Part shown: piece after piece, positions 29,572 through 30,252 of the stretch
How the letters are laid out: each line of letters starts with the position of its first letter
How positions within the stretch are numbered: the first letter of the stretch is position 1
From: a virus
Length of the DNA: 64,000 nucleotides
Direction: 5' to 3' (one strand)
Virus genome (UHGV): UHGV-0286546
Program-made: the position numbers and the translations under genes
The notes under the pieces: model-generated
The model's database searches: none
Told to the model about the DNA's origin: nothing
Seen by the model: the letters and a program-made list of their open reading frames with translations, nothing else

Positions 29572-30252
29572 ATGAATGATATTATTACGTATCAAGAGAT
29601 ATTAGATACTGCATTAAACCGTATAAAACAAAAATGTCAAAATATTGATGCTCTTCCTGCTAATTTGTCAAGAGAATTTACAAACAATTCTAATTGGACT
29701 ATAACGAGTAAAACAGTATCACATCAAGTTCAAACAAATACTTTTGAAAACCATACAATATCTGCTACTGCAACTGTTTCAGATAATATTTTATCGGTTA
29801 TATCCAGTGCTACAGTTGCTCAGCAATTAAATGATTTTTTGGTTATGAGAGGTTTAAACAAAAGACAAGATAAGCTTGTGTCTTTTAAGGAAATGCTGAT
29901 CTATTATAATAATATCGCGTCTTTTATTGCTACTAAGGTTGTTACAGTCACTAGTGCATTTAGTACTCTATCTTATTTGTTTTATGATGCAAACACTACT
30001 TCTTTTCCATCTACTGCAGCTTTACCAACCAACGCAGCATATTCCAATGCAGAATTAACAACTGATATTAATGACCTATTAAAAGTTGTAAATAATGTCA
30101 GTAATACACATTTGATTAATACTGTCATTAATTATATCTCTAGTTCGTCTAGTAGTTCGAGTAGTTCTTCTTCATCTTCGAGTTCTTCCAGTAGTTCATC
30201 TAGTAGTAGCAGTTCGTCTTCATCAACGTTCATCGCATACATGGATATTTAA
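29572..30252 (+). CDS. Poly-Ser-tailed protein P1 (226 aa): about 190-aa beta-type domain, then 29 consecutive Ser, then TFIAYMDI
   Basis: Translation; Ser codons span 30139..30225 with mixed codon usage. Paralog of 42007..42753. Confidence 0.6.
   Translation: MNDIITYQEILDTALNRIKQKCQNIDALPANLSREFTNNSNWTITSKTVSHQVQTNTFENHTISATATVSDNILSVISSATVAQQLNDFLVMRGLNKRQDKLVSFKEMLIYYNNIASFIATKVVTVTSAFSTLSYLFYDANTTSFPSTAALPTNAAYSNAELTTDINDLLKVVNNVSNTHLINTVINYISSSSSSSSSSSSSSSSSSSSSSSSSSSSSTFIAYMDI

Follow-up and report, generated by a model that had tools for sequence, protein, structure and literature searches.

Two serine-tailed proteins in a phage genome

The virus genome UHGV-0286546 was analysed as one stretch of 64,000 nucleotides, here called the window, which has a GC content of 28.6% and, because portal, GroEL-like and tail-fibre genes were matched in PHROG, is assigned to a tailed phage. 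It encodes two paralogous proteins, P1 and P2, each consisting of a predicted folded domain, a long uninterrupted run of serine residues and the C-terminal heptapeptide FIAYMDI. Each P gene adjoins a gene for a tail-less protein of the same family (Q1 and Q2), and both pairs lie among genes for radical S-adenosylmethionine (rSAM) enzymes, which raises the question addressed here, namely whether the serine tail is their substrate. The features of the two pairs, together with the gene preceding P2, are as follows.

29572..30252, plus strand: P1, 226 amino acids, with a PQ-family alpha/beta domain (amino acids 1-189), a 29-serine tract and TFIAYMDI
30139..30225, plus strand: serine tract of P1, 29 uninterrupted serines (amino acids 190-218) encoded by all six serine codons
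30226..30249, plus strand: C-terminal motif TFIAYMDI of P1, with the stop codon directly after it
30253..30804, plus strand: Q1, tail-less P paralog whose start codon abuts the P1 stop codon
41452..42006, minus strand: Q2, tail-less paralog abutting the P2 stop codon
42007..42699, minus strand: P2, 230 amino acids from the likely start ATG at 42699, with a PQ domain, one cysteine, 24 serines and FIAYMDI
42031..42102, minus strand: serine tract of P2, 24 codons
42689..43393, minus strand: R2, helical protein encoded directly upstream of P2

The translations confirm the 29- and 24-serine tracts and the identical terminus on which an original prediction, made from this sequence, had been based, and P1 and P2 are paralogs as it had proposed (44% identity, E = 2e-38). 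Beyond Lys171, the C-terminal peptide of P1 reads VVNNVSNTHLINTVINYI-S29-TFIAYMDI, and P2 ends in ...LSYIC, 24 serines, FIAYMDI and the stop; the residue before the shared heptapeptide is threonine in P1 and serine in P2. The N-terminus of P1 (MNDIITYQEILD...) contains, as judged by eye, no hydrophobic signal-like segment. Both P-Q junctions read ...GCATAYATGGATATTTAAATG, with the Q ATG on the base right after the P stop, in agreement with the conserved junction that had been noticed; a search for the exact junction motif in IMG/VR gave no match.

The start of P2 had been placed at a TTG at 42753, with P2 at the head of its operon. The ATG at 42699 (MLNENT...), which has AAGGAAAG upstream and overlaps the stop of R2 by 11 nt, is the likely start, and with this start overlapping the R2 stop, the operon is headed by R2 and not by P2. 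Promoter and terminator scans performed no better than shuffles. A near-consensus sigma-70-like site on the minus strand (42813..42840; TTGATA, 16 nt, TATAAT; 11 of 12 positions matching) is located within the 3' portion of R2 at a distance of some 110 nt upstream of the P2 start, and may be due to chance, since such sites are not above shuffles in AT-rich DNA.

Composition, maintenance and carrier domain of the tail

In P1 and P2 alike, the tracts mix all six serine codons in the proportions of serine usage over the rest of the window, and Tandem Repeats Finder detected two-copy repeats of 12-15 nt only and no triplet array, as had been expected from the codon mixture. Among P genes whose flanking 450 nt are at least 88% identical, 15 pairs were compared, and tract length was unchanged in every one of them, the tract being neither absent nor highly variable in close relatives. 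In the ortholog of P2 from the related locus L024, which is 99% identical to the window in one of the rSAM proteins (the 40506 type described below) and represents the window's own lineage, the tract occupies the same 24 positions at a nucleotide difference of about 10%, with eight synonymous serine changes (including AGT to TCA) and one serine-to-threonine change. Because length is kept in close relatives while serine codons change synonymously, the alignments indicate that the tract is under purifying selection at the protein level, which bears out the earlier argument from codon usage.

We then considered the tail across the family, using 102 distinct P-type tails collected from family matches and related loci. 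Tract length ranges from 9 to 36 residues, with a median of 22, and the composition is 84.4% serine, 14.6% cysteine and 0.4% threonine, other residues being practically nil. Only two of the 102 tracts are free of cysteine, P1 being one of them; the poly-serine runs originally described are therefore real in P1 and P2, but the feature of the family is a serine/cysteine tract, 100 of the 102 containing cysteine. The tract is followed by 7-12 residues, which conform to x-F-I-[A/G/V]-Y-M-[K/N/D]-[I/L] plus 0-4 residues, and within the tail positional conservation is highest in this motif, with F found in 82, I in 84, Y in 81 and M in 70 of about 100 sequences. The cysteines show no fixed register and no period. 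Cysteine codons are one step away from serine codons, and the same holds for those of threonine, alanine, proline, glycine, asparagine and others; since these other neighbours are excluded while cysteine is accepted, the selected feature of the tract is an unbranched side chain bearing a beta-hydroxyl or a beta-thiol. This composition rule looks chemical rather than physical, and the tolerance of serine and cysteine but not of threonine, glycine or alanine argues against a plain linker.

The domain that carries the tail is shared with Q. P1 matches Q1 at E = 5e-7 and Q1 matches Q2 at 28% identity (E = 3e-17), and when the profiles of the two groups, P domains and Q proteins, were compared with hhalign, they aligned end to end with 99.9% probability and E = 8.6e-37. 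Q is therefore P without the tail, a point missed in the original prediction. The window thus contains four members of this P/Q family. A word-indexed search with the P1 domain alone gave no match. When 1.84 billion cluster representatives from public metagenomes, clustered at 50% identity, were searched exhaustively with a profile, 369 P/Q clusters were recovered at E ≤ 0.001, 224 of them at E ≤ 1e-10. No relative of the family was found in Pfam, PHROG, NCBIfam, PDB or BFVD, and Pfam, PHROGs and NCBIfam gave no credible match for P, Q, R or the other conserved uncharacterized proteins of the module; R has no relative in Pfam, NCBIfam or PDB.

An AlphaFold2 model of P1 from the single sequence was unusable, with a predicted local distance difference test (pLDDT) of 40, and a family alignment was required. 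With 57 family members, the model reached a pLDDT of 85.9 and a predicted template modelling score of 0.76, and it comprises a single folded N-terminal domain (amino acids 1-192) followed by a disordered, accessible tail. The domain is modelled as mixed alpha/beta and not as the beta-type fold first suggested, and the PQ domain of about 190 amino acids probably represents a new fold family. Fusions of a Q-like PQ domain with a glycine-rich domain of the ALK/LTK type occur in other phages, as in P0055 (432 amino acids) and P0009 (378 amino acids), the glycine-rich parts of these fusions matching PF12810 (9.5e-11) and PF21722; the PQ domain is thus able to carry differing C-terminal appendages.

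Radical SAM genes in the window and in related loci

Within about 25 kb of the window (19.8-44.4 kb), 15 genes encode proteins that gave rSAM-type matches and carry a CX3CX2C motif in their N-terminal part, an exceptional density of iron-sulfur (Fe-S) enzymes for a virus. Five of them, 31390, 34045, 34964, 38694 and 40506, are paralogs of about 300 amino acids with a common GGE motif and, in the C-terminal part, the signature C-G-H...Y-x-D-S-x-x-C-x-x-C-D; we refer to them as rSAM-A. They occur in both the P1 and the P2 cluster, confirming the reported proximity of the P genes to rSAM genes. The surrounding genes are listed below.

31390..32268, plus strand: rSAM-A of the 31390 type, CX3CX2C at amino acid 20
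32272..33285, plus strand: X32272, conserved module member with weak class-V aminotransferase/cysteine-desulfurase-like similarity
33282..33947, minus strand: R1, 53% identical to its paralog R2 and the sole minus-strand gene of the P1-side cluster
34045..34971, plus strand: rSAM-A of the 34045 type
34964..35875, plus strand: rSAM-A of the 34964 type, 50% identical to the 34045 type
35877..36893, plus strand: peptide-maturase-like rSAM/SPASM protein, outside the conserved core
36890..38200, plus strand: MiaB/RimO-family methylthiotransferase-like rSAM protein (Pfam Radical_SAM, 3.6e-18), found in some related modules
38694..39650, minus strand: rSAM-A of the 38694 type, in the P2 operon
39664..40509, minus strand: X39664, conserved protein between the two rSAM-A genes of the P2 operon
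40506..41432, minus strand: rSAM-A of the 40506 type, directly downstream of Q2, the best-conserved member (45-99% identity, 29 loci)
43476..44387, plus strand: fifteenth rSAM gene, divergent from the P2 operon
19823..29116, minus strand: left-hand block with rSAM genes 19823 (SPASM type), 23248, 24134, 25209, 26309, 27354 and 28160 and three uncharacterized genes

The arrangement was examined in 32 related loci. A search with the full P alignment recovered the poly-serine pattern only and nothing that could be confirmed, and a tract-free P alignment was too variable; as P alignments were unsuited to locus searching, an rSAM protein was used as bait. Three loci (L001-L003) had been found through P homologs, and 29 were fetched with a 40506-type rSAM alignment, from 20 IMG/VR contigs (65-314 kb) and nine GTDB contigs in various bacterial bins. 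A P-type tail gene lies beside rSAM-A paralogs in 29 of the 32 loci, and in 26 of the 29 fetched through the rSAM protein it is at most 10 kb away from it. The usual order is R-P-(Q or P)-rSAM-A, nearly always on one strand, with R before or after P in nearly all loci, and the GC content of these loci ranges from 23 to 50%. The proposal that the tails are candidate substrates therefore gains strong indirect support from synteny, whether P or the rSAM protein serves as bait, the modification itself being a prediction from sequence.

Individual loci illustrate this conservation. On the 86-kb metagenome contig of L001/L002 (29.5% GC), P is flanked by homologs of the 31390, 40506 and 38694 rSAM proteins and of X39664. 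The operon of L003 (42% GC) encodes R, two successive P proteins, a 31390-type rSAM, a MiaB-like protein and a 40506-type rSAM (55% identity), followed by a 157-amino-acid protein, a 38694-type rSAM, a 34045-type rSAM and an X32272-type protein. The P0152 contig (GCA_016648615.1) carries P and then five genes for proteins of about 300 amino acids, one of which has a faint rSAM match. The number of rSAM-A copies per fetched locus is 3-8. Two complete P/R/rSAM-A sets are present in L014 and in L016, and in the window separate rSAM-A genes accompany each of the two P-Q pairs; the P module thus duplicates as a unit.

Several further observations were made in these loci. The 38694-type gene occurs three times in a row in L004-L006 and L009, and a 689-amino-acid protein of L001 (3609..5678, minus strand) resembles a fusion or tandem of 38694-type rSAM-A units. 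L001 also contains a reverse-transcriptase gene (RVT_1; 11455..12582, minus strand) 2 kb from P, with tail-type genes (Gp53-like_C, VgrG3-like_C, BppL_N) as neighbours of both, and the RVT_1 gene is possibly part of a diversity-generating retroelement. The contigs of L024-L032, some of them 245-283 kb long, come from GTDB bins assigned to Succinivibrionaceae, Bacilli, Muribaculaceae, Bacteroides, Melainabacteria and Erysipelotrichaceae; they give the impression of phage genomes wrongly placed in bacterial bins, and the bins are therefore unreliable as evidence of hosts. The presence of a MiaB-like gene showed no more than a weak trend towards low-cysteine tails, confounded by relatedness and by the 10-kb flanks, and a link between the two was therefore set aside.

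By their sequences, the rSAM-A proteins are genuine rSAM proteins of an unclassified subfamily. In a collection of 5.8 billion proteins, 1,326 clusters (defined at 90% identity) matched at E ≤ 0.001, nearly all of them unnamed; the contigs that carry some of them reach about 290 kb. Among solved structures, the rSAM-A profile matches the peptide epimerase YydG best (E = 3.5e-10), although over the rSAM core only (profile positions 1-177), and viperin-like enzymes come next at about 1e-5. The NCBIfam matches of rSAM-A cover the N-terminal core only and lie far below the family cut-offs; one of 29 members matches the YydG family model TIGR04078 (1.6e-6, below the cut-off) and the other 28 do not match it, which leaves rSAM-A outside that family. 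One member, DAH71079.1, carries a GenBank third-party annotation that cites the SCIFF maturase CteA, and weak PapB and CcpM matches occur among the window and rSAM-A proteins in NCBIfam. This likeness to peptide-modifying enzymes is suggestive, not decisive. No SPASM domain was detected in the rSAM-A enzymes with Pfam or NCBIfam, and no member matched a B12-binding rSAM family.

The remaining rSAM genes and neighbours are less uniformly conserved or more distantly matched. The SPASM-type proteins 35877 and 19823 match the anSME model at E = 1.6e-6 and 5.8e-12, with 27-45 bits against a cut-off of 349, and weakly match cyclophane, DynA and PapB maturase models; proteins of these types are present in only 4 of the 32 loci. 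The MiaB-like protein 36890 matches TIGR00089 at E = 2e-48 over profile positions 91-364 of 429, with 165 bits against a cut-off of 251; no TRAM domain was matched in it in Pfam and NCBIfam scans, and its L003 homolog matches UPF0004 (weakly) and Radical_SAM. For X32272, which has homologs in 16 of the 32 loci, weak matches were obtained to PDB entry 1ecx (E = 0.083), to a cysteine desulfurase (0.21) and, in one of 13 members, to Aminotran_5. Its E-H and D-A-V-Q motifs match 1ecx, and the lysine position of S-x-H-K reads T-A-H-A. The lysine that binds pyridoxal phosphate is apparently replaced, and X32272 may represent either a pseudo-enzyme or a protein for Fe-S supply that has diverged.

The left-hand block is an extended module, partly common to L007. 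Its genes 24134, 25209 and 26309 encode tandem rSAM paralogs of about 360 amino acids (31-42% identity, 15-17 cysteines each). Between its rSAM genes lies 22554..23246 (minus strand), encoding a 230-amino-acid protein with a Cys/His-rich end, ...CYNTWQSQCFSAGGLVYNFYTCHNNCHGSCYSNRGRR, and no family match; this protein could be a second kind of rSAM substrate. Farther away, 11668..13314 (minus strand) encodes a GroEL-like chaperonin (phrog_5725, E = 1.8e-127). On the other side, the rSAM region is flanked by an SMC_N/AAA_23/SbcC-type ATPase gene (45474..47336, plus strand) and the next gene (47333..48364); L008 and L027 carry homologs of both after the module, and in L024 these homologs flank it. 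Distant matches, to T4-like/cyanomyovirus-type and a few other phage portals (23-25% identity), were obtained for the portal protein only, and no cultured or GenBank phage relative was matched in INPHARED, either by megablast of 29-45 kb or by tblastn of P1 and the 40506-type rSAM.

The tail as a candidate substrate of rSAM enzymes

Taken together, the bidirectional and GC-independent synteny, the joint duplication of P and rSAM-A, the chemical-looking composition rule and the accessible disordered tail suggest that the tail of P is a protein-tethered substrate of a phage multi-rSAM pathway, a reading to which we assign a probability of about 0.55. The sequence features, their conservation and the shared gene order are shown by the data; that the enzymes act on the tail, at which site, by which chemistry and in what biological role is inferred from them. 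The folded domain, the terminal motif or both would dock the tail onto the rSAM-A paralogs, possibly with help from the co-conserved helical R protein, and the enzymes would abstract hydrogen from the C-alpha or C-beta of tail serines and cysteines. Such reactions could epimerise or oxidise these residues or cross-link them through thioethers, and in some phages the MiaB-like enzyme could insert sulfur. As no protease or exporter was found in the module, the modified product would probably stay attached to the P protein. In a fuller version, for which we would give somewhat less than even odds, the tail is processed residue by residue by four to more than ten rSAM paralogs in a virus-encoded maturation that yields a tethered polymer used in infection, for example a D/L-alternating, poly-aldehyde or thioether-laddered one. 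Such a polymer would act in the virion, in host takeover or against host defence.

Several points weigh against a substrate role. The case is one of guilt by association, and 3 of the 32 loci contain no detectable P gene in the DNA examined, although for one of them (L026) the upstream DNA is missing because the rSAM match lies 516 bp from the contig end. Viperin is a nucleotide-modifying enzyme, and 19 of the 29 rSAM-A members weakly match its family in NCBIfam (best 1.3e-6). No PqqD-like recognition element of the kind associated with peptides that are ribosomally synthesized and undergo post-translational modification (RiPPs) was found in R, the X proteins or the rSAM proteins with Pfam and NCBIfam; the rSAM motif starts at amino acids 13-22 of the window rSAM proteins, leaving no room for an N-terminal domain. 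Nor did Pfam detect a peptidase or ABC-transporter domain in the genes of 19.8-47.3 kb. Since P1 lacks cysteine, cysteine-dependent chemistry cannot be general. Finally, the fusions of PQ to glycine-rich domains suggest that the PQ domain may be simply a structural or display module.

Modification of ribosomal peptides by rSAM enzymes is known in bacteria and archaea, and the candidate system can be compared with several of its examples. As in RiPP pathways, the substrate gene is clustered with rSAM maturase genes across relatives (29 of 32 loci), but a leader and core with a releasing protease or exporter is not found, and the 'leader' is a folded domain of 190 amino acids with a free-standing paralog, Q. 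The epipeptide system YydF/YydG of Bacillus subtilis likewise encodes a ribosomal substrate beside an rSAM enzyme; however, the short peptide YydF undergoes cleavage and export, whereas the candidate here is a protein of 226 amino acids whose tail resembles a homopolymer and which has no protease or exporter nearby, and the alignment to YydG does not extend into the C-terminal half of rSAM-A (CGH...Y-x-D-S-x-x-C-x-x-C-D). The nearest functional analogy is provided by the proteusins, such as the polytheonamide precursor PoyA, in which the C-terminal core, multiply modified by rSAM enzymes, follows an N-terminal region that is large and structured. PoyA is modified by the rSAM epimerase PoyD and by rSAM C-methyltransferases, which act repeatedly on a long run of residues. 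Structured proteusin leaders have been described (PMC10858898). Unlike proteusins, the present system is encoded by phages, its core is limited to serine and cysteine, it includes no match to B12-binding rSAM enzymes, and its PQ domain matches neither a nitrile-hydratase-like nor a Nif11-like leader in Pfam or NCBIfam.

The composition of the tract bears on the possible chemistries. Epimerisation of the YydG or PoyD kind alone does not explain the serine/cysteine rule, and thioether formation is inapplicable to P1, which is free of cysteine. Oxidation at C-beta would explain the rule: anaerobic sulfatase-maturating enzymes (anSME) perform the one well-known rSAM reaction that takes serine or cysteine, but not threonine, to formylglycine, and this preference mirrors the composition of the tract. 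The anSME-like chemistry named in the original prediction is nevertheless unsupported, because the (C/S)-x-(P/A)-x-R motif is absent from the tails, with no proline, alanine or arginine in register, and because the SPASM rSAM proteins lie outside the conserved core; neither the motif nor a SPASM partner places the system with anSME. In SCIFF/ranthipeptide systems and those of CteA, PapB and CcpM, a cysteine-containing C-terminal region is also encoded beside rSAM maturases, but SCIFF-type maturases possess SPASM domains and act on peptides of about 45 amino acids with fixed cysteines, whereas here the cysteines are unfixed, P1 is devoid of them and rSAM-A has no detectable SPASM domain.

The main rival explanation is that the tract is a flexible, hydrophilic tether, that FIAYMxI docks in a partner such as the phage capsid or tail, Q, R or an adjoining P subunit, and that the rSAM enzymes act elsewhere, for example on nucleotides, DNA or a cofactor. 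It agrees with the predicted disorder of the tract, with a length that varies between 9 and 36 residues while the terminal motif is fixed, with the unfixed cysteines, with the PQ-like fusions in other phages, with the tail-type genes near P in L001 (Gp53-like_C, BppL_N, VgrG3-like) and with the weak viperin matches. Near-pure polyserine linkers also occur in secreted glycoside hydrolases. Those of Cellvibrio, Saccharophagus and Teredinibacter are long, nearly pure serine runs as here, but they join two folded domains of secreted proteins, whereas here the few residues beyond the tract do not allow it to join two domains, about 15% of the tract is cysteine and the gene is linked to rSAM genes, which sets P apart from interdomain polyserine linkers. 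Polyserine linkers of secreted carbohydrate-active enzymes are mentioned in PMC2699552. A tether would also leave unexplained why 14.6% cysteine is accepted while threonine, glycine, asparagine, alanine and proline are excluded, and why P and rSAM-A are constantly paired over genomes of 23-50% GC and are duplicated jointly. The display linker that the original prediction offered as its alternative is weakened by the same exclusion of residues; it stays in contention as an unlikely, though not negligible, rival.

Alternatively, the rSAM enzymes may modify the FIAYM terminus, at its phenylalanine, tyrosine or methionine, by cyclophane or other cross-links, the tract serving only to present it. 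FIAYM is the most position-conserved part of the tail and holds two aromatic-X-X units, the kind of unit used by rSAM enzymes that form three-residue cyclophanes, with cross-links as in triceptides and mycofactocin, and the SPASM proteins of the window weakly match cyclophane, DynA and PapB maturase models. Most related modules, however, lack SPASM-type rSAM proteins, a target of seven residues would hardly call for the four to eight rSAM-A paralogs of a locus, and the serine/cysteine-only composition is left unaccounted for, which makes this explanation improbable. Replication slippage or a mis-called frame without specific function, to which the two-copy 12-15 nt repeats and the length differences among distant relatives might point, can be dismissed, given the genome-typical mixture of codons, the synonymous drift and stable length among close relatives, and the conservation of the motif and stop in frame downstream in 102 distinct sequences.

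No description of the P/Q-rSAM system, or of multi-rSAM clusters in large phages, was encountered in the literature searched, including gut and rumen jumbo-phage surveys. The general scheme of a ribosomal substrate encoded next to rSAM maturases is already known; what appears to be new is a folded carrier domain that has a tail-less paralog, a core made only of serine and cysteine, a fixed C-terminal motif, a novel rSAM subfamily in 3-8 copies per fetched locus, and the setting in phages. There is a substantial chance that the P/rSAM-A system also performs new chemistry.

Our findings indicate that the P/Q-rSAM system is widespread and not a curiosity of one genome, with 369 P/Q clusters and more than 1,300 rSAM-A clusters, on phage contigs of 65-314 kb from animal gut and rumen samples. 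Two natural candidate substrates are encoded by short genes, and the cysteine-free tract of P1 separates cysteine-dependent from cysteine-independent chemistry. If the tail is the substrate, the system would bring new rSAM chemistry to a repetitive core of the simplest conceivable kind, and this would explain why a phage spends up to 25 kb of its genome on 15 Fe-S enzymes.

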